From contig JAGXNQ010000001.1 of the NCBI GenBank assembly GCA_019894955.1, positions 1 to 53,718 of the forward strand: a stretch of DNA of 53,718 nt. Reading direction: 5' to 3'. A program made the position numbers and the translations under genes. The notes beneath the pieces were generated by a model. That model worked only from the letters and a program-made list of their open reading frames with translations, did no database searches and was not told the DNA's origin. Below, piece after piece: positions 2,787 through 45,751 of this stretch (within the stretch, counting starts at the first letter, position 1; each line of letters begins with the position of its first letter). The stretch comes from Promethearchaeota archaeon (lineage in GTDB: Archaea > Asgardarchaeota > Lokiarchaeia > Sigyniarchaeales > SOKP01).

Positions 2787-3866
2787 TTAAAATTTATATC
2801 TTAATATTGCTAAGAGAGATCCCAAATCTTCTATACGCTGTCCAGTTGGATGCTCACTACTCATAATGTGGATTACTCCTTGTGACTTCTCTACATTGCT
2901 AATTATTTTTTCAATATGTAGTTTTTGATTTTTTTGTGCTCCCCTAATTAGGGTATCTACAAGAAATAATTCTTTTACTGCACCCCTCTCCGATGCGATA
3001 TCTACCTCATCAAAACCGATAGCAATAAGATCAGGGTTTTTATCAAATAATGTAAAAATTTCTTCGATATTTTGGGTCTCTTGCAGAATTTTTACATTTT
3101 TTTTTATTTTCGCTAATTGTTTAGATTTTAGAATCTCAATAATTCCACTTTCAGTCCCAGAACTCGCATGAAAGTTTTGAATTTTATTTGTATATGGTAC
3201 TTTTACTTTTTCTTTCAAATAAGTCAAGAAATGATCCCTGATACTTCCCGGTCCGCATAAAACAATCAAATTAATATCATTGAGCTTAATATTTTCTCCT
3301 ACTATCTTTTCTATTTCCATAAAAAATTCTTGGATTGCTTTATTTCTGTGTGTTTGCTCGTATCGTTTTCCGGGTATGTTCTTTTTAATAGTAGCGATTC
3401 TTTTATGGCTGAAATTTGTTGTGAGTGATATAGTAGCCAATCCCGTTTCAATAGCAACTATTAGCATGTTAAAATTAACTTCGAATTTGGAGTGTTCACT
3501 TAATCTCTTTATTTCGTTTCTCAACCATTTCTCCTTAATAATTACCAATTTCTGACCAATTTCAATATTTAAAGTATGGTAGGTTCCAAAACTTACGAAG
3601 TCTTCAGGTCCTTCTAAAATTGTACCCTTAATCCTTAGACGATTTGAAAATTCATGAAATGACACATCTTCAACGTTAATTTTAAGGTACATTGGTTTAC
3701 GTTCTCCTTTTGATCCTTCTTTTAATACAATTCTTCTCTGAGTTCGAGCGGCAACTTTATCATTCTCTGATATTACATTGTATAAGCTCCATAAATCGTT
3801 TAAATTCTCAATTTGAACCGTTATTTCTCTAGTTTTATCATTTCTTTCCAGAATTTTCATAAACAA
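2787..3866 (-). CDS. pelA: Pelota (Dom34 homologue, aRF1-related mRNA surveillance / ribosome rescue factor)
   Basis: The N-terminus MKILERNDKTREITVQIENLNDLWSLYNVISENDKV matches the typical Pelota N-domain. The eRF1-like central and C-terminal domains and the ~356-aa length also fit. The true start may be the third codon (MKIL). Confidence 0.9.
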   Translation of the reverse strand: MFMKILERNDKTREITVQIENLNDLWSLYNVISENDKVAARTQRRIVLKEGSKGERKPMYLKINVEDVSFHEFSNRLRIKGTILEGPEDFVSFGTYHTLNIEIGQKLVIIKEKWLRNEIKRLSEHSKFEVNFNMLIVAIETGLATISLTTNFSHKRIATIKKNIPGKRYEQTHRNKAIQEFFMEIEKIVGENIKLNDINLIVLCGPGSIRDHFLTYLKEKVKVPYTNKIQNFHASSGTESGIIEILKSKQLAKIKKNVKILQETQNIEEIFTLFDKNPDLIAIGFDEVDIASERGAVKELFLVDTLIRGAQKNQKLHIEKIISNVEKSQGVIHIMSSEHPTGQRIEDLGSLLAILRYKF

Positions 3867-3985
3867 TCAATTTCTCTTAAGGTAAGGCAAAAAATAAATT
3901 GTATTAGTATTAGGAAAGTACTTTTTCCAATAAATTTATACTTCAGATTATAAAAATAAATAAATAAAAATTAAAAAAAAAATAA

Positions 3986-4138
3986 TCATTTCTCTCCAAG
4001 AGCTTCTTTGATCTTCTCCAATTCTTCCATCCGCTTCTTCTTTTCTTCTTCACGTTTCTTCATTTCTGCATCGTCTACTTTTTGGAGAGTTACACCCTTT
4101 TTTATTTCCTCTTTCAGTTCATTATCGACTGGGGTCAT
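3986..4138 (-). CDS. Small ORF (50 aa) not in the ORF track: MTPVDNELKEEIKKGVTLQKVDDAEMKKREEEKKKRMEELEKIKEALGEK, with a WH2/beta-thymosin-like motif
   Basis: ATG at 4138-4136 and TGA at 3988-3986. An in-frame stop lies 3 codons upstream of the ATG, and GAGGT lies 3-4 nt upstream. The ORF fills an otherwise empty 380-nt gap on the same strand as both neighbours. Confidence 0.4.
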   Translation of the reverse strand: MTPVDNELKEEIKKGVTLQKVDDAEMKKREEEKKKRMEELEKIKEALGEK

Positions 4139-4246
4139 TATACCTCAACGTTTCTTATTTTTTGTATAGTAATCTGATTTTAAAGCATTTAGATATACTG
4201 ATATTATAATAATTTTTATTTATAAGTTTAAGTTAATAGTAAAAAG

Positions 4247-4687
4247 CTAGAGTTTAAGCTCCATTAAGAAAGCATTATCACCTATTCGGTAATAATTATC
4301 AATTTCTTTGATTATGCGAAAATCATGGTTCTTGTATAGTTTAAGAGCACTCAAATTAGATGTTCGTACATTTAAGATTATTCGTTTAAAAATTTGTGAT
4401 TTTTCAACTTCCATTAATACGTGGTTTAGGAGAAAAGAACCTAATCCCATATTTCGATAACCTTCTTTTATGAGCAAACTTATAATGTTGAGTGTATTTC
4501 TTTCTTGCTCTAGTACGATTACAAATCCTATTATTTTTTCATTACTATTTAATAGTTTAAAAAAAAAAGTATTATTATATAATAATTGTTCAATTGTCTC
4601 TTTTGAAAATGAATCATCCTTGAAAGTGGTTTTCTCAAGTGAATTGATCTGATTCAAATCATTAATCTTGACTTTTTCTATCTTCAT
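4247..4687 (-). CDS. GNAT-family N-acetyltransferase (RimI-like)
   Basis: Acetyl-CoA binding motif region IKEGYRNMGLGSFLLNHVL and the C-terminal ALKLYKNHDFRI are present. The length is 146 aa. The start overlaps the upstream radical-SAM gene by 26 nt. Confidence 0.85.
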   Translation of the reverse strand: MKIEKVKINDLNQINSLEKTTFKDDSFSKETIEQLLYNNTFFFKLLNSNEKIIGFVIVLEQERNTLNIISLLIKEGYRNMGLGSFLLNHVLMEVEKSQIFKRIILNVRTSNLSALKLYKNHDFRIIKEIDNYYRIGDNAFLMELKL

Positions 4688-5828
4688 TTAATCCAAAATC
4701 CTCCCAAAATACATTAATTGGAGATTTCTCTGTTATTTGTTTATATTTCTCTTCTCTGAAAGGAGTAGTTTCCAAAATATAAAATTTTAATCCTTTCTTA
4801 TCAACTAATTGAATAATATCGTCATTTAGTGAAGCCTCAACAGATAACTTTAATCCTGCAGTATCAATTTCTAAATGATGCGATTTTAAATTTGCATTCT
4901 TTAAAATTTCTTCTTTTAATTCATGTAATTTATCTAAAGGTCCTTCAATTTGACTATAAATCAATAACCCTTCAGGAGAAATTGATTCATATGGTTTTCG
5001 TATTTTTTTTGCTCGGCGATAATAACGCTTGCTTAATTGCCAATAATCTTTTGCAATTATTGTGCAAAAATGGATTTTAATTGATACTTTGGGTGCCATC
5101 CGTTCTATTAGTTCAAACGCCATCTCTTTACTATTCTCAACAGAAGCTATAGTCCCATTCTTTAAATCATAACCTCTATCTTTTAATTGAGCACTATTAG
5201 ATACACTATATTCGAATTCATTTATATTGAGAAAATCAGCCCCAATTTTATCTAAATAGATAATAAATTGTTCTAATTCATTTAAATATTTATTTTGAGG
5301 AATTAAAGGAACTTCAGCACCAACTTGCATCCCTTTTTTAAGAGCTAATTTGATAACATTCCAATTGGACCGAGAAGGATTAAATCTAATCTCGTCTAAA
5401 CCAGAATTAGCAAGATCGATGGCTAAATTCTCATCAAAATTAACACCATTTGAATAAAGGTGTATATGGAATTTCTTACCCATTTTGTGTCTGATAAACC
5501 TAATTATTTCTAGGGTAGATTTAATATTTGGGGTAAATAGAGGATCACCACCTGTTATTCCCATGCCTAACGCATTTGTATTATTAATTTCATCGAGGAT
5601 TTCTTCTTTTGTATTAATTTGGATTTCATTAGCAAACATTAATGATTTATTTTTCCTTTCTTCAGAAATAGGACAATACCAGTAACAATGGTCTGGATTT
5701 TGGCACAATCCATTGAGAAATAATACTGTTTTTGCTCCCTTCAGGCAAATTTGGCATCCCTTTGGAATCCCTCTTCCTTTAATTAGAAATGTTCCTTTTC
5801 CTGAATCATAAAAACTATTTTTTCTCAT
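4662..5828 (-). CDS. Radical-SAM-related enzyme with atypical cysteine spacing (PFL-activase-like uncharacterised family)
   Basis: The GGDPLF SAM-binding-type motif (GMGITGGDPLFTPN) lies ~35 aa after the cysteine cluster LCQNPDHCYWYCP (CX5CX3C). An extra CQIC pair lies upstream. The start overlaps the stop of the nucleotidyltransferase gene (ATGA, 4 nt). Confidence 0.7.
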   Translation of the reverse strand: MRKNSFYDSGKGTFLIKGRGIPKGCQICLKGAKTVLFLNGLCQNPDHCYWYCPISEERKNKSLMFANEIQINTKEEILDEINNTNALGMGITGGDPLFTPNIKSTLEIIRFIRHKMGKKFHIHLYSNGVNFDENLAIDLANSGLDEIRFNPSRSNWNVIKLALKKGMQVGAEVPLIPQNKYLNELEQFIIYLDKIGADFLNINEFEYSVSNSAQLKDRGYDLKNGTIASVENSKEMAFELIERMAPKVSIKIHFCTIIAKDYWQLSKRYYRRAKKIRKPYESISPEGLLIYSQIEGPLDKLHELKEEILKNANLKSHHLEIDTAGLKLSVEASLNDDIIQLVDKKGLKFYILETTPFREEKYKQITEKSPINVFWEDFGLNEDRKSQD

Positions 5829-6537: not shown

Positions 6538-7332
6538 TTAAGATTTAATTTTATTAATGAGTTTTAGAATAATTCCAAATAAAATTGTTTCAAAATATTT
6601 AAAATTTCGAGTAGCATCCCTAACTATAATTGAATTATGAAAGTTTTGTGTTCCACGATATTTCTCAATGGTTTTATTTTTGAATTTAATAATGCTATAT
6701 TCACTGAAAATAAGATAGCTATCCTTTGTGGAGTTAAATCCCGTATTTTCTATCAAATTTTCCTGTTTTTCTTTAATATTAAGCTTTGAATTTATAATAA
6801 TATGACCTAGGTAATTCTTTTCATTTTTTATGTATATGGGATTGAAATTTTTGTCATTATAAGATATTAATATGTATTTATCATTATTTGCTGAACCAGA
6901 TGTATTTTCCATTATAGAATTGATAACACATATTATCTCATCGTTGATATCATTTTTAGATGAATCGATCGAGGATTTTTTACTTAATGATAATAATACA
7001 TTAATCACTCTTAATCCATAACTACTGAGCCCTTCTGTTACGACTCTTAGCAAACTAATTCTTCTTTTTGTACGAAGGATGATTATTATAGGATCGCTTT
7101 TATTCATGAGTTTATTATTAATAGCTAAGTTCCATCGGCAAGCTTTAATAATAGACTCGTTTGTTCTTTGTACTGAATTTTGAGATGATAAGAGGATATC
7201 TTCATTAACTAGAGTATTTCTCCAACGTGTCAAAATCTTATAAATTTTAACCAAAATTAAAAATGTTATTAAAAGAATGATAGCAACTGAACTAACAAGT
7301 ATCCAATCAACACGAAAAATATCAAAACTCAT
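6538..7332 (-). CDS. Hypothetical protein anchored by one N-terminal TM helix
   Basis: The N-terminus VDWILVSSVAIILLITFLILVKIY is hydrophobic and the remainder is soluble with no recognisable motifs. The gene is tightly packed, 5 nt after cutA and 11 nt before the nucleotidyltransferase gene. Confidence 0.55.
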   Translation of the reverse strand: MSFDIFRVDWILVSSVAIILLITFLILVKIYKILTRWRNTLVNEDILLSSQNSVQRTNESIIKACRWNLAINNKLMNKSDPIIIILRTKRRISLLRVVTEGLSSYGLRVINVLLSLSKKSSIDSSKNDINDEIICVINSIMENTSGSANNDKYILISYNDKNFNPIYIKNEKNYLGHIIINSKLNIKEKQENLIENTGFNSTKDSYLIFSEYSIIKFKNKTIEKYRGTQNFHNSIIVRDATRNFKYFETILFGIILKLINKIKS

Positions 7333-7337
7333 TGAAA

Positions 7338-7682
7338 TTACTCCTTACTATTATTTACGACATTGGCAATCCAATTTAAATATTTTTCTGAGCCCTTTGT
7401 TATAGGAATTCTTATACATTCGGGATTTTCATAACTATGGGTTTCTTGGATCTTTTGAATAATCAAATCACTTTTACTTTCAACAGTTTTTATAATCAAT
7501 AAAAATTCTTTCTCAATTTCAATATTATTTTTCCACCAATAAGTAGAAATAATATTTGGTACAATGCTTACACAAGCGGCTAGCTTTTCTTCGACTAAGA
7601 TTCTAGAGATATCAGTACCTTCTTCAATATTTGAGACCGTCACAAAAAAAATACAATATTTTATCTTCTTCACCATTGACAA
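7338..7682 (-). CDS. cutA: CutA1 divalent-cation tolerance protein
   Basis: The pattern EEKLAACVSIVPNIISTYWWKNNIEIEKEFLLIIKT...THSYENPECIRIPI is typical of CutA. The length is 114 aa. Confidence 0.85.
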   Translation of the reverse strand: MSMVKKIKYCIFFVTVSNIEEGTDISRILVEEKLAACVSIVPNIISTYWWKNNIEIEKEFLLIIKTVESKSDLIIQKIQETHSYENPECIRIPITKGSEKYLNWIANVVNNSKE

Positions 7683-7767
7683 ATTCTTTGATTTACCATT
7701 ATATATGAATGTTTAAATACAAACTTTTTTTTCTAAATAAGATTTATTTTATCCTAAGATTAGAAAT

Positions 7768-23236: not shown

Positions 23237-23351
23237 TGCAGGAAGTGGGATTCGAACCCACGAAGACCTATGTCATTATCTCCGAGAATTGGTTATATTC
23301 TCAGTCTAGAACCTCAGTCTAGCGCCGTAGACCATGCTTGGCAATTCCTGC
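23237..23351 (-). tRNA. tRNA-Leu (anticodon GAG) with a ~31-nt intervening sequence at the anticodon-stem/variable-arm junction
   Basis: The reverse complement is GCAGGAA-TT-GCC-AAGCATGGTCTAC-GGC-G-CTAGA-CTGAGGT-TCTAG-[ACTGAGAATATAACCAATTCTCGGAGATAAT]-GACATAGGTCTTC-GTGGG-TTCGAAT-CCCAC-TTCCTGC-A. The acceptor stem, T arm and anticodon arm pair perfectly. The long D loop and variable arm are class II features. Confidence 0.8.
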
Positions 23352-24414: not shown

Positions 24415-25428
24415 ATGTCAGTTGATACAAAAAAGTTACAGGCATTATTAAAATGGTACATGCAGAGTATTGGAGAAAATTTAATAGCTGTTATCATTGT
24501 AAATCGAGAAGGTTTAATTATCGATAGAATTTTTGGTGCATCGGAAAAACAATTGGATGAGGATATAGTTGGTGGAGTAAGTGCTTTAGTTGAGCCTGTT
24601 TTAACAAGGATCACCAAAGAATTTAGTTCAGGATCCTTTGGTACGGGAACGTTTGATACTGAAGAATATAGATTGATTTTCTGTGAAGCTGGTCCTGAAG
24701 CTGTTTTAGTGACGATATTAGATGCGATTGCTGGAGTGGATCCTGTCTTTCCATATGCCTATTTAGCCGCAGAAAAAATTGCTCGAATATTTGACGGAAG
24801 AACTGTAAGTCCTGTAATACCAAAGCTAATTTCAGAAAAAAGGATTAATAATATTGAAAAAAAAGTAAATCAACTCCAAAAGATAAAAGTACAATCGGGA
24901 GAATATGCTTTCAAATTAATCCTTGGAGGTGACGGAGCCGTTGGTAAGACATCCATGGTTCATCGGTTTGTTGAAAACGAGTTCGCAAAAGATTACAAAT
25001 CAACTATTGGAACTTCAATTATGAAGAAAGAATGCAAATTTGATGGATTAGAGAGCTTGGTTCGATTTGTGCTTTGGGATCTTGCGGGACAAGCCCAATT
25101 CAAGAAAGTTAGACAATCTTATTTATCAAACGCTGAAGCAGGTATATTAGCATTCGATGTTACAAATCCTTCTTCATTCCAAAGCATTGAAAATTGGCAT
25201 AAAGAAATCATTTCAGCTTCCCCTAACATATCACTTATTCTAATTGGAAATAAGATTGATTTAGTAGATAATAGAGTAGTTTCCAGGGAAGATGGAGAAA
25301 AAACAGCTGAAAAACTTGGAATTCCATATATTGAGACATCCGCTAAGACCGGTGAAAGTATTAATGATGCTTTTAGAATGTTGGCATTGCAGATGATTAA
25401 GAATTATCTTGTAGGTGAAGAAATATAG
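24415..25428 (+). CDS. Roadblock/LC7 (MglB-like) domain fused N-terminally to a Rab/Ras-like small GTPase
   Basis: Residues 1-~125 carry a roadblock pattern (IGENLIAVIIVNREGLIIDRIFGAS...VGGVSALVEPVL...EYRLIFCEAGPEAVLVTILD). The G domain has G1 GGDGAVGKTS, G2 YKSTIG, G3 WDLAGQ, G4 GNKIDL and G5 ETSAK. There is no C-terminal Cys. Confidence 0.85.
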   Translation: MSVDTKKLQALLKWYMQSIGENLIAVIIVNREGLIIDRIFGASEKQLDEDIVGGVSALVEPVLTRITKEFSSGSFGTGTFDTEEYRLIFCEAGPEAVLVTILDAIAGVDPVFPYAYLAAEKIARIFDGRTVSPVIPKLISEKRINNIEKKVNQLQKIKVQSGEYAFKLILGGDGAVGKTSMVHRFVENEFAKDYKSTIGTSIMKKECKFDGLESLVRFVLWDLAGQAQFKKVRQSYLSNAEAGILAFDVTNPSSFQSIENWHKEIISASPNISLILIGNKIDLVDNRVVSREDGEKTAEKLGIPYIETSAKTGESINDAFRMLALQMIKNYLVGEEI

Positions 25429-26767: not shown

Positions 26768-26841
26768 GGGCCATTAGCGCAGGCAGGTAGCGCGGCAGGC
26801 TTTTAACCTGAAGGTCGTGGGTTCGATTCCCACATGGCCCG
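26768..26841 (+). tRNA. tRNA-Lys (anticodon UUU), intron-less
   Basis: The sequence is GGGCCAT-TA-GCGC-AGGCAGGTA-GCGC-G-GCAGG-CTTTTAA-CCTGA-AGGTC-GTGGG-TTCGATT-CCCAC-ATGGCCC-G. It gives a 74-nt clean cloverleaf. Confidence 0.9.
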
Positions 26842-44005: not shown

Positions 44006-45751
44006 TTATACTAATTTATTCCCACATTTGTTACAAAACGCGTAATCAGAAGATAATATTGCCCCACATTGTGAACATGTTAAAAATTCTTTAGGTTGAG
44101 GTTCTTCCTCTATACTAGGTTTTGGACTTGATGTTATTACTGTGAACGAATTAGATTCTGGTTCAATATTTGCTACATTTGGAATAATTCTCAAAGTAGA
44201 TGATTCTTCTATCTTTGGTTCCTTGCTTGAAGCGAAAGATACGAATGGGGCTGATTCTTCAATTTTCACATTTTCCGTTTTTTGTGTTAATGCTTGGAAT
44301 AACGAAGGTGTGCTCATAGTTGCGTCTGATTTAGGAAAAACTACTTCTTGTTCCGGACCCCCCTTTTTCTTTTCTTTTTTCAGTTTTTCTTTTTTACTTT
44401 GTTTCATTTCCTCAATCAATCTATCTTGCTTTTCTTTCTCCTCTTTAAATTTAATTTCTTTTTCCTTTTTCTTCTTATCTTTATCAAGCTTTTTCTTTTC
44501 TTTTTTAGATATAATTGTTTCTGGCATATAGTCAACTAATGATTGAGAAGGTGGAGAAATAGTTGTGGAACTTGGTGCTGGTTCAAATGTCATTGAGGCA
44601 GGTTTGGGTTTTATTGGTTCCTCTTTTTTTGAAACAATAAACGGTACAGTTTTCGTAGTGGTGGTTTGAGGTGAAATTGTTCCTTTATGAGATTTAAATT
44701 CTTCTGGAGTGGGGGCAGGAACAGGTATATTAGGAGAAAAAGGAACGGTTTTTGGTTTATATGATTCTTTTATTGGTCCTTGAGATAATTTTGAAGATTG
44801 CGTTGTTTTTTGTGGCATTTTTGCTTCTTGCGAGAAAATTTCTTCTGGTGTTTTAAATTCAAATTCAGCAGGATCTGGAATGGAAACTTCGGGTATGGAT
44901 GTAAATTCAAATGAAGGTATTGGTTTTGTTTTTGTTTCAATTATTGGTGTTGTTTTTGTTTCAATTATTGGTGTTGTTTTTGTTTCAATTATTGGTTCTG
45001 GCACGGGAGGTGCAGCATATTTGATTTCTGGAATTATTCTTACGGGTTCTGGTATGGGAGGTGCGTCATATTCGATTTCTGGAACTATTCTTACGGGTTC
45101 TGGTACGGGAGGTGCAGCAAAATCATTAGTCTCTAATAGAAATGAACTTCTTTCCTCATTACTACTTACCGGGATTTGACCAGGATTATATACAATATTG
45201 TTTAATAGTTGTGCTGGAACTCCTTGACCAATCATCAAGCAAGCTAAGATATAGAAACAATCTCCAACGCCGTCCCCTGTTTTAGCAGAAGTCTCCATAT
45301 AATAGAGGTTAAAATCTCGGGTAAAATTATTTATTTCTTCAAGTGAAACCATACGTTGATCAGTTAAATCGCTTTTATTTCCCACAAGCAACAATGGAAT
45401 TTCGGTTTTTAGATTAGCTCTCACTTCTTCAATCCATTGAGGTAAATGTTCAAAGCTTACTGCATTGGTAAGATCAAATACTAAGACTGCTCCAAGTGAA
45501 CCTCTATAATACATTGGACGGATTGAGCTAAAGCGTTCTTGACCTCCTGTGTCCCAAAGTTGGAGTTTGGCTTTGATAGGTCCTTCTATGGTATTAATGG
45601 TTATTGTCTTTACGTGAAAGTCAACTCCAATTGTCATTTTATAATCTTCTGTAAAAAAATCCTTGGAAAAGCGTAAAGTTAGAGCGGTTTTACCTACGCC
45701 GCCATCCCCTACGACGATTGATTTAAACAAGTAGTCATATTCTTCTGACAT
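44006..45751 (-). CDS. Rab-like small GTPase with a ~380-aa repeat-containing disordered tail and a C-terminal Zn ribbon
   Basis: G motifs are G1 GDGGVGKTA, G2 YKMTIGVDF, G3 WDTGGQERF, G4 GNKSDL and G5 ETSAKTG. The tail has repeats APPVPEPVRIVPEIEYD x2.5 and IIETKTTP x3, a KEKEKK-rich block and the final CSQCGAILSSDYAFCNKCGNKL. There is no CAAX or CC motif. Confidence 0.85.
   Translation of the reverse strand: MSEEYDYLFKSIVVGDGGVGKTALTLRFSKDFFTEDYKMTIGVDFHVKTITINTIEGPIKAKLQLWDTGGQERFSSIRPMYYRGSLGAVLVFDLTNAVSFEHLPQWIEEVRANLKTEIPLLLVGNKSDLTDQRMVSLEEINNFTRDFNLYYMETSAKTGDGVGDCFYILACLMIGQGVPAQLLNNIVYNPGQIPVSSNEERSSFLLETNDFAAPPVPEPVRIVPEIEYDAPPIPEPVRIIPEIKYAAPPVPEPIIETKTTPIIETKTTPIIETKTKPIPSFEFTSIPEVSIPDPAEFEFKTPEEIFSQEAKMPQKTTQSSKLSQGPIKESYKPKTVPFSPNIPVPAPTPEEFKSHKGTISPQTTTTKTVPFIVSKKEEPIKPKPASMTFEPAPSSTTISPPSQSLVDYMPETIISKKEKKKLDKDKKKKEKEIKFKEEKEKQDRLIEEMKQSKKEKLKKEKKKGGPEQEVVFPKSDATMSTPSLFQALTQKTENVKIEESAPFVSFASSKEPKIEESSTLRIIPNVANIEPESNSFTVITSSPKPSIEEEPQPKEFLTCSQCGAILSSDYAFCNKCGNKLV
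44921..44992. repeat. Coding tandem repeat, 3 x 24 nt (tggtgttgtttttgtttcaattat) encoding (IIETKTTP)3 on the minus strand
   Basis: Units at 44921, 44945 and 44969. Units 2 and 3 are identical and unit 1 differs at 2 positions. Confidence 0.9.
44994..45119. repeat. Coding tandem repeat, ~2.5 x 51 nt encoding the APP(V/I)PEPVRI(V/I)PEI(E/K)Y(D/A) repeats
   Basis: Units at 44994-45044 and 45045-45095, with a partial unit at 45096-45119. A few substitutions occur between units. Confidence 0.9.

Follow-up and report, generated by a model that had tools for sequence, protein, structure and literature searches.

A micro-protein gene between GNAT and pelota

The stretch of DNA considered here (hereafter "the window") covers positions 1 to 53,718 of contig JAGXNQ010000001.1, 53,718 nt in length, from a Promethearchaeota archaeon, a member of the Asgard archaea (assembly GCA_019894955.1). 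It carries a 50-codon open reading frame (ORF) that is a genuine gene under strong purifying selection, and whose product may be a binder of monomeric actin. The ORF sits inside a 380-nt gap that extends from a RimI-type GNAT acetyltransferase gene to the pelota gene, and all three genes are on the minus strand (Table 1). A first-pass annotation, made by a model from the letters alone, had predicted an ORF with this peptide in this gap, and the translation matches the prediction exactly. The GAGGT that it had reported just upstream of the start codon is also present. Its description of this codon as the only possible ATG is too strict: it is the first possible start because an in-frame TGA lies two codons 5' of it, but there are internal ATGs at M26 and M37. 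Conservation of the protein reaches its N-terminus. The A/T-rich region 5' of the gene presumably holds the gene's own promoter.

Table 1. Features of the micro-protein gene, its product and the adjoining genes (window positions)
Feature	Position	Strand	Details
Micro-protein coding sequence	3986..4138	minus	50 amino acids; TGA stop at 3988..3986; translation MTPVDNELKEEIKKGVTLQKVDDAEMKKREEEKKKRMEELEKIKEALGEK
Start codon (ATG)	4138..4136	minus	
Shine-Dalgarno-like GAGGT	4146..4142	minus	3 nt upstream of the ATG
A/T-rich 5' intergenic region	4147..4246	minus	putative promoter of the micro-protein gene
Run of ten T	3982..3973	minus	3 nt past the stop; likely archaeal oligo-T terminator
Residues 3-14, predicted N-terminal amphipathic helix	4097..4132	minus	PVDNELKEEIKK; AlphaFold2 and conservation
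Residues 15-22, GVTLQKVD	4073..4096	minus	predicted helix-ending Gly, then extended LxKV (LKKT-type); AlphaFold2 and conservation
Residues 23-47, predicted long charged helix	3998..4072	minus	AlphaFold2 confidence (pLDDT) 88-92
Pelota gene	2787..3866	minus	neighbour of the micro-protein gene
RimI-type GNAT acetyltransferase gene	4247..4687	minus	NCBIfam TIGR01575, 89.6 bits (cut-off 86.4)
Radical-SAM gene	4662..5828	minus	neighbour of the GNAT gene

When a hidden Markov model (HMM) of the family was run against the window, the micro-protein ORF was the sole match (E 4.5e-24). A 53-amino-acid F/S-rich ORF on the opposite strand (4008-4169, plus) was considered as a gene and rejected as an antisense shadow of the K/E-rich micro-protein gene. 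The radical-SAM and GNAT genes overlap by 26 nt (4662-4687), and packing is equally tight at orthologous loci.

Conservation and selection

There is extensive comparative evidence for the micro-protein gene. Among 5.8 billion proteins, a word-indexed search found at least 219 homologues. The 120 of these that were listed are all 49-51 amino acids long and are 74-100% identical to the query over 86-100% of its length; those with names are each a "hypothetical protein" of Promethearchaeota, Loki-, Thor- or Hermodarchaeota. The first-pass annotation had proposed looking for a conserved micro-ORF in Asgard relatives, and a scan in which each GTDB species was represented by a single genome bears the proposal out, with an orthologue in 97 species and the gene order kept in about 80. 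The family is confined to Asgard archaea: every orthologue is labelled as such except for one on a contig (DATKTW010000134.1; L057) from a metagenome-assembled genome (MAG) labelled "Candidatus Nanopelagicaceae bacterium". This contig carries the whole Asgard cluster of Pol-beta-like, radical-SAM, GNAT, micro-protein, pelota and radical-SAM genes; it almost certainly comes from an Asgard archaeon and was mis-binned. Automatic annotation has also produced spurious names, such as the JGI label "multidrug resistance efflux pump" on four proteins of 50-51 amino acids (P0002, P0016, P0083 and P0117) and "DNA-binding protein H-NS" on a relative, P0207.

Selection on the protein sequence is strong. 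Among 38 distinct 50-codon orthologues, the mean proportion of synonymous differences (pS) is 0.59 and that of nonsynonymous differences (pN) is 0.086; relative to the window sequence, pS is at saturation (0.7-0.97) and pN is 0.06-0.14. Across 72 syntenic loci, the micro-protein has a median identity to the window copy of 78%, compared with 62.7% and 42.3% for pelota and the GNAT protein, respectively, and it is more conserved than pelota at 70 of the 72. Its identity ranges from 66 to 88% despite the saturation of synonymous sites, and no frame disruptions of the ORF were found across the 72 loci. The flanks of the gene are also conserved. At 47 of 73 orthologous loci, the 16 nt before the start include a Shine-Dalgarno-like AGGTG or GAGGT, most loci have a conserved AAGGTGTT block, and a conserved upstream block, TGTAAATAT-AATTTAATTATTTT, about 35-58 nt 5' of the start, is common to the orthologues. 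Downstream, a run of at least five T is found within 40 nt 3' of the stop at 61 of the 73 loci. With these elements on either side, the micro-protein gene resembles an independent transcription unit.

Predicted structure of the micro-protein

AlphaFold2, run on the family alignment, predicts two helices (residues 3-14 and 23-47) on either side of a segment without regular secondary structure (residues 15-22), with a mean predicted local distance difference test score (pLDDT) of 83. The invariant residues are spread over all three parts: I12, G15, V16, L18, V21, R29, E30, R36, M37, E39, L40, K42, A46, L47 and G48. Conserved hydrophobic positions in the N-terminal helix are 4, 8 (L/M) and the invariant I12. 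In the extended segment, conservation of K20 and of D22 is 90% or higher, and several distant family members have an exact LKKV. The long C-terminal helix has a conserved face made up of R29, K33, R36, M37, L40, V/I43 and L47; Arg in its conserved positions is never swapped for Lys. A Foldseek search of the 50-residue model against the PDB gave no matches; a model of just two helices offers too little structure for such a search.

The predicted order of helix, extended LxKV and helix is the layout of WH2 domains and beta-thymosins. A likeness to thymosin beta-4 had been noted by the first-pass annotation, and it holds for the size and for the predicted order of elements but not for the C-terminal helix, which has no detectable similarity. 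We propose that this helix is a second, family-specific determinant that lacks a eukaryotic counterpart.

Resemblance to WH2 domains

How specific is the resemblance to WH2? The first-pass annotation had aligned the segment LKEEIKKGVTLQKVDD without gaps to the 16-residue core of a WAVE-type WH2 motif. The comparator is WAVE1 (residues 259-286; PDB chain 7usc_C), and a recount confirms 8 identities in 16. The annotation had cautioned that short K/E-rich motifs arise easily in AT-rich genomes. This is fair for the motif alone: a six-frame translation of the window contains the pattern [ILV][KRQ][KRQE]G..L[KRQ][KR][VT] a single time, within the micro-protein ORF, where residue shuffles lead one to expect 0.005, and chance alone should produce the core motif about once every few Mb. 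Conservation of the gene, together with the profile results described below, removes chance as an explanation for the motif.

A single-sequence phmmer search of the PDB gave nothing meaningful, so far as the window protein is concerned, and the signal emerges with profiles. Three were compared with a PDB set of 177,635 distinct sequences. Profile A1, built from 45 sequences, places an N-WASP construct with tandem WH2 domains at the top (3m3n_W, E 7.5e-4), the MIM WH2 peptide third (2d1k_C, E 0.22, with residues 2-23 aligned, including the N-terminal TP) and another N-WASP chain fourth (2vcp_D, E 0.52). The broader profile A2, of 36 diverged singletons, finds 3m3n_W at E 2.4e-4 and Spire DDD at E 0.088. 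Profile A7 consists only of repeat units from the Asgard tandem-repeat proteins described below and has no sequences in common with A1 or A2; it has four matches at E ≤ 10, all of them WH2 chains (3.4e-5, 0.05, 0.87 and 4.6). A reversed A2 profile of equal composition recovers no WH2 chain, only three unrelated coiled-coil matches (best E 0.5). Alignment of the profiles with a small WH2 alignment by hhalign is ungapped over 21 columns, with P 1.2e-3 for A2 and 5.4e-4 for A7. As a calibration, the genuine WAVE1 WH2 finds the Spire WH2 in the same PDB set at an E-value of only 1.2e-4. These comparisons show that the N-terminal half of the micro-protein bears a specific and reproducible motif-level likeness to WH2, too weak to prove homology.

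The likeness extends to several details. In WH2 domains (PF02205; WASP/WAVE, N-WASP, MIM, WIP, Spire and Cobl), as in the micro-protein, an amphipathic helix is followed by Gly and then by L-x-K-V, with the Leu six residues after the Ile (I12 to L18; the spacing is the same in WAVE1, N-WASP and MIM). The N-terminal helix segment aligns with the WH2 helices of N-WASP, MIM and Spire, and the alignment to these and to WAVE1 is ungapped. Like WH2, the Asgard unit is found singly, in tandem or beside another actin-binding domain. Unlike WH2, the conserved unit extends over about 40-45 residues, with a long, invariant basic/hydrophobic helix trailing the motif, and is archaeal rather than eukaryotic or pathogen-derived. 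Beta-thymosins (PF01290; thymosin beta-4, ciboulot and actobindin) are a second point of comparison. They, too, are stand-alone proteins of 40-50 residues with a helix, an LKKT-type segment and a second helix, the order predicted for the micro-protein, and they have multi-repeat versions; thymosin beta-4 shares with the micro-protein a polar N-terminal helix. By analogy, the micro-protein would be a candidate 1:1 sequesterer of monomers. It differs from thymosin beta-4 in that its C-terminal helix is predicted to begin right after LxKV-D and to run for about 25 residues of unrelated sequence. In beta-thymosins, the C-terminal helix is shorter and caps the pointed face of actin.

Related motifs are already known within Asgard proteins. 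Asgard two-domain gelsolins (2DGel) contain WH2-like motifs of the LKKT type, namely LRRV, LKHV and LVDV/LKDV (PMC7444086, PMC9433394, bioRxiv 10.1101/2025.11.30.690169), and crystal structures place these motifs on actin (PMC7444086, PMC9433394). The gelsolins thus share with the micro-protein an LKKT-type segment, and those of Loki likewise lack its first basic residue. In 2DGel, the motif is a linker within the gelsolin fold and a gelsolin domain fills the actin cleft, whereas the micro-protein has no gelsolin domain and would supply a cleft-type helix of its own. A further parallel, drawn from published description, is the profilin of Leishmania and other trypanosomatids, which has an inserted WH2-like motif (PMC10907219); as in three of the Asgard fusions described below (P0146, P0170 and P0191), profilin and a WH2-like motif share one polypeptide, but the Asgard motifs are separate repeats after the profilin domain and are followed by an extra C-terminal domain. 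In reviews, the actin regulators listed for Asgard archaea are limited to profilins and gelsolins (PMC12050087). Nowhere in the open-access and bioRxiv literature searched did we find a stand-alone Asgard WH2-like protein, a tandem array or a profilin-WH2 fusion described, and a full-text search of the same literature for the peptide sequence found it in no paper. The first-pass annotation was aware of no WH2-type G-actin binder in Asgard archaea, which stands for the stand-alone form but overlooks the gelsolin motifs. What appears to be new is a stand-alone WH2-type protein in Asgard archaea, since WH2-like motifs within Asgard gelsolins have already been published.

Tandem arrays, profilin fusions and other relatives

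An exhaustive HMM search of 1.84 billion representative proteins found 54 at E ≤ 1e-3. Most are singletons of 47-60 amino acids with the consensus DDELKxEIxxGxxLxKVDxxELKxREEEKKKRxEEL. Others are tandem arrays made up almost wholly of WH2-like units of about 40-45 residues: P0124 (497 amino acids; L091 8001-9494) has about ten, and P0162 and P0166 have four or five. The helices of the tandem units, L-[LMIF]-x-E-I-x-x-G-x-x-L, have the full WH2 hydrophobic pattern, and the core of the long helix, K-x-x-R-[LM]-x-E-[ILV], is kept both in the tandem repeats and in the profilin fusions. By analogy, arrays of units of about 45 residues recall actin nucleators of the Spire/Cobl/VopL type.

The profilin fusions form a family of 19 proteins with an N-terminal profilin domain, one to four WH2-like units, and a C-terminal domain of about 45 residues with a conserved TDYIYDDFxLLRVKHKI (alignment A4: P0146, P0170, P0172 and P0190-P0204; loci L087 8001-9164 and L092 8001-8909). 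A homologue search with P0170 alone retrieved only itself, and querying with an alignment recovered the family. The N-terminal domain matches Pfam Profilin at E 2.5e-4. Its AlphaFold2 model (pLDDT above 80) has OdinProfilin as its best Foldseek match (5zza_P; E 1.4e-10, template-modelling score 0.90, root-mean-square deviation 1.5 A, 28% identity), followed by LokiProfilin1 and 2 and then eukaryotic profilins. Foldseek similarity to the Odin and Loki profilins confirms P0146, P0170 and P0191 as profilin fusions, and the domain is a genuine Asgard profilin. Beyond the profilin domain, AlphaFold2 confidence is low. P0124 and P0170 are NCBI Promethearchaeota MAG proteins, and the MAG that encodes a twin of P0170 also encodes a singleton (ACTSUE locus tags). 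No gelsolin-containing proteins are among the HMM matches of the family.

Other architectures are rarer. P0165 (425 amino acids) combines leucine-rich repeats (LRR), a unit and a ribbon-helix-helix (RHH) domain, and P0167 (120 amino acids) combines RHH and a unit. There are two eukaryotic parallels: the pairing of LRR with a WH2-like unit recalls leiomodin, and an RHH domain joined to an actin-binding motif, as in both proteins, could serve as an actin-sensing regulator. RHH-fused forms might couple the level of G-actin to transcription, as RPEL proteins do. P0164 (169 amino acids, from a 774-bp ENA contig) has three repeats, ELHDEVKKGITLKRTESVDKSAP, GLKNEIKKGPVLKKTMSVDKSSP and DLKKDIKKGVILTRT, that end in LKRTESVDKSAP or LKKTMSVDKSSP and bear the Asgard-type ELKxEIKKG helix. 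We take these repeats to be of eukaryotic appearance (WIP/beta-thymosin WH2), bridging both sequence worlds.

Genomic neighbourhoods

The order Pol-beta-like, radical SAM, GNAT, micro-protein, pelota and radical SAM is found in about 80 species, and the GNAT, micro-protein and pelota order is kept around a distant member, P0147 (L094). In another, P0134 (L095), a RimI-type GNAT gene adjoins in convergent orientation and there is no pelota gene. Hence, RimI-type GNAT genes lie beside the micro-protein gene in three arrangements (in the window, in L094 at 2053-2544 and in L095 at 7239-7712). The conserved Pro3 of the micro-protein is expected to block N-terminal acetylation.

More distant orthologues have a different conserved context. 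P0139, P0140 and P0142 (L088 6001-6156, L096 6001-6156 and L097 6001-6153, labelled Hod-, Sigyn- and Promethearchaeota) lie in the order VWA/MoxR AAA, micro-protein, protein of about 130 amino acids and BtpA, with neither GNAT nor pelota. In this context, the VWA-MoxR genes are divergent and the gene for the 130-residue protein is convergent; BtpA and an Rce1-like protease follow, and then genes for an aminoacyl-tRNA synthetase of class I (Pfam tRNA-synt_1c) and for a Ras/Arf GTPase. The 130-residue protein was considered as a profilin and rejected by eye, with no search made on it, because its sequence looks longin/roadblock-like rather than profilin-like. P0138 lies in yet another neighbourhood. 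Because no neighbour is common to the whole family, adjacency to pelota or GNAT is not read as functional evidence, and a functional tie to either through synteny is weakened by the distant orthologues in unrelated conserved contexts. The window has no actin gene.

Actin or another partner

We favour the view, with a probability of roughly 0.6, that the micro-protein is a stand-alone WH2/beta-thymosin-like binder of monomeric Asgard actin (Lokiactin). More broadly, the family is probably a new group of WH2-like actin regulators in which a WH2-like module, extended by a family-specific helix, occurs by itself, as tandem copies and joined to profilin. The first-pass identification of a WH2-like motif is upheld by the profile searches and the reversed control, but falls short of the Pfam WH2 threshold. 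Indeed, several observations weigh against actin binding. The test with the Pfam WH2 and thymosin HMMs that the annotation had suggested turned out negative: the window protein matches neither at E ≤ 10. When 36 diverse members were searched at E ≤ 10, three matched Pfam WH2 (best E 0.007), all below the gathering threshold of 23.1 bits, and PF01290 is absent from the 25 families listed of the 45 matched. Since both thresholds lie above what the micro-protein scores, it is not filed as a member of either family. Other sub-threshold matches are of similar strength: H-NS_N is matched by 6 of the 36 members and DUF3006 by 12 (best E 4e-4). The individual WH2 matches in the PDB score only 6-15 bits, and the best E-values arise from adding up three repeats of an engineered tandem construct. 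Unlike WH2, the singletons have a polar K, Q or E at the second hydrophobic residue (Leu) of the "LL..I" triad, and the first basic residue (Lys) of LKKV is usually Q, E or S. The C-terminal helix, for which neither WH2 nor thymosin offers a counterpart, holds more than half of the conserved positions and could fit another partner. Finally, the RHH and LRR fusion partners are not actin-related, and the gene neighbourhoods of the family, including those of the tandem and fusion genes, show no link to actin.

Some other family assignments were considered. NCBIfam has no family for the singleton, tandem or fusion proteins. The sole family that the window protein matched in the Pfam scan is DUF3006 (PF11213; 14.5 bits, gathering threshold 32.3 bits), and the DUF3006 matches were judged compositional. 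Some members read K-P-D-x-x-E-L-K-x-R, with the spacing of the RPEL core RPxxxEL. An RPEL motif was rejected: hhalign gave P 0.48 against an approximate RPEL alignment, and none of the PDB matches of A1, A2 and A7 is an RPEL chain.

There are three alternatives to actin binding. The micro-protein could be a conserved helical adaptor or regulator for a partner other than actin, such as profilin, the RimI-type N-terminal acetyltransferase, pelota or the ribosome, or nucleic acid, with a WH2-like stretch that arose by convergence. The gene order shared by about 80 species and by L094, the renewed adjacency of a RimI-type GNAT gene in L095, the fusions to RHH and LRR domains, the concentration of invariant residues in a helix foreign to WH2 and the sub-threshold Pfam scores all fit such an adaptor, and fusion to profilin equally fits a profilin-binding peptide. 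This is the main rival, though we hold it to be less likely than actin binding. No neighbour accompanies the family throughout (P0139, P0140, P0142 and P0138 are in other contexts), and the gene has its own Shine-Dalgarno-like site, upstream A/T-rich block and terminator. Moreover, three separately built profiles recover WH2, only WH2 chains recur among their matches and the reversed control recovers none, while tandem arrays and profilin fusions are typical of actin-monomer-binding modules.

Two further alternatives were considered. One is that the C-terminal E/K/R-rich segment is a mere single alpha-helix or coiled-coil spacer, conserved for its composition in an AT-rich genome. The pattern of EEEKKKRMEELEK does resemble ER/K single alpha-helices, the GC content of the window is 30.8%, and the sub-threshold matches to K/E-rich families include the PheRS coiled coil as well as DUF3006 and H-NS_N. 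This is very improbable, because conservation is position-specific (R29, E30, R36, M37, E39, L40 and K42 are invariant, and Arg is not replaced by Lys), the protein is 66-88% identical where synonymous sites are saturated, a reversed profile of equal composition finds nothing comparable, and the N-terminal half, with I12, G15, V16, L18 and V21, is not of low complexity. The other is that the ORF is a chance, unexpressed one, as might be supposed from its shortness and from the frequency of K and E codons in an AT-rich genome. This has already been refuted by the comparative data, with at least 219 homologues of fixed length, 97 species, pN far below pS and intact frames at 72 loci.

Possible mode of action

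How might the micro-protein act on actin? That the partner is actin, where on actin the protein binds, and that the result is sequestration are all inferred. Helix 3-14 would enter the barbed-face cleft of actin between subdomains 1 and 3, and Gly15 would terminate this helix. The extended V16-T-L18-Q-K20-V21 would then run up the actin surface along subdomain 1, like an LKKT/V motif. Helix 23-47 may make a second contact with actin through the face R29/K33/R36/M37/L40/V43/L47, and this contact could stabilise a 1:1 complex, such that G-actin is sequestered or buffered. Alternatively, the micro-protein may hand monomers to barbed ends. In the larger relatives, 4-10 tandem copies or profilin-linked units could gather several monomers, which would make these proteins candidate nucleators or elongation factors.

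A binding site for the module plausibly exists in Asgard actins. The barbed-face cleft residues that are contacted by gelsolin G1 and cofilin are reported to be largely conserved across them (PMC7444086), and Asgard gelsolins engage actin through LKKT-like motifs (PMC9433394). Asgard profilins and gelsolins function on rabbit actin in vitro (PMC7444086, PMC9433394), and there are two Asgard cultures with Lokiactin antibodies (bioRxiv 10.1101/2025.11.30.690169).

Other features of the window

An Rfam tRNA match at 23237-23351 (minus) spans 115 nt, compared with 71 positions in the model, and this points to an archaeal tRNA with an intron; another tRNA, of ordinary form, is at 26768-26841 (plus). 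Two Ras-family small GTPases, at 24415-25428 (plus) and 44006-45751 (minus), are typical Asgard eukaryotic-signature proteins. Both have extra regions: one has an N-terminal extension of about 165 residues with no Pfam match, and the other, of 581 amino acids, has a C-terminal zinc ribbon. The remainder of the window holds core archaeal genes, including those for PolD DP1 and DP2, RpoB, Cdc6, PAN, RtcB, Cbf5 and NrdD.

Implications for Asgard actin biology

What would a WH2-like micro-protein mean for Asgard archaea? To our knowledge, only profilins and gelsolin/cofilin-like proteins are experimentally supported as Asgard actin regulators, and we know of no formin or WASP-type activator in this lineage. 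If the favoured reading is true, the stand-alone, tandem and profilin-fused proteins are candidates for monomer-pool control and filament nucleation. The case also illustrates what length cut-offs applied to ORF tracks conceal, here a gene that ranks among the most conserved of the lineage. The WH2 module has so far been regarded as a eukaryotic invention. We tentatively suggest, at somewhat less than even odds, that the WH2/beta-thymosin module predates eukaryotes, and that Asgard archaea use it as an abundant 50-residue sequestering or buffering peptide, as tandem nucleators resembling Spire and Cobl, and as profilin-WH2 fusions. Were the micro-protein and its relatives to bind actin as proposed, the origin of the WH2 module would be pushed back before eukaryotes, and the Asgard actin toolkit would have had both monomer-pool control and WH2-based nucleation before eukaryogenesis.

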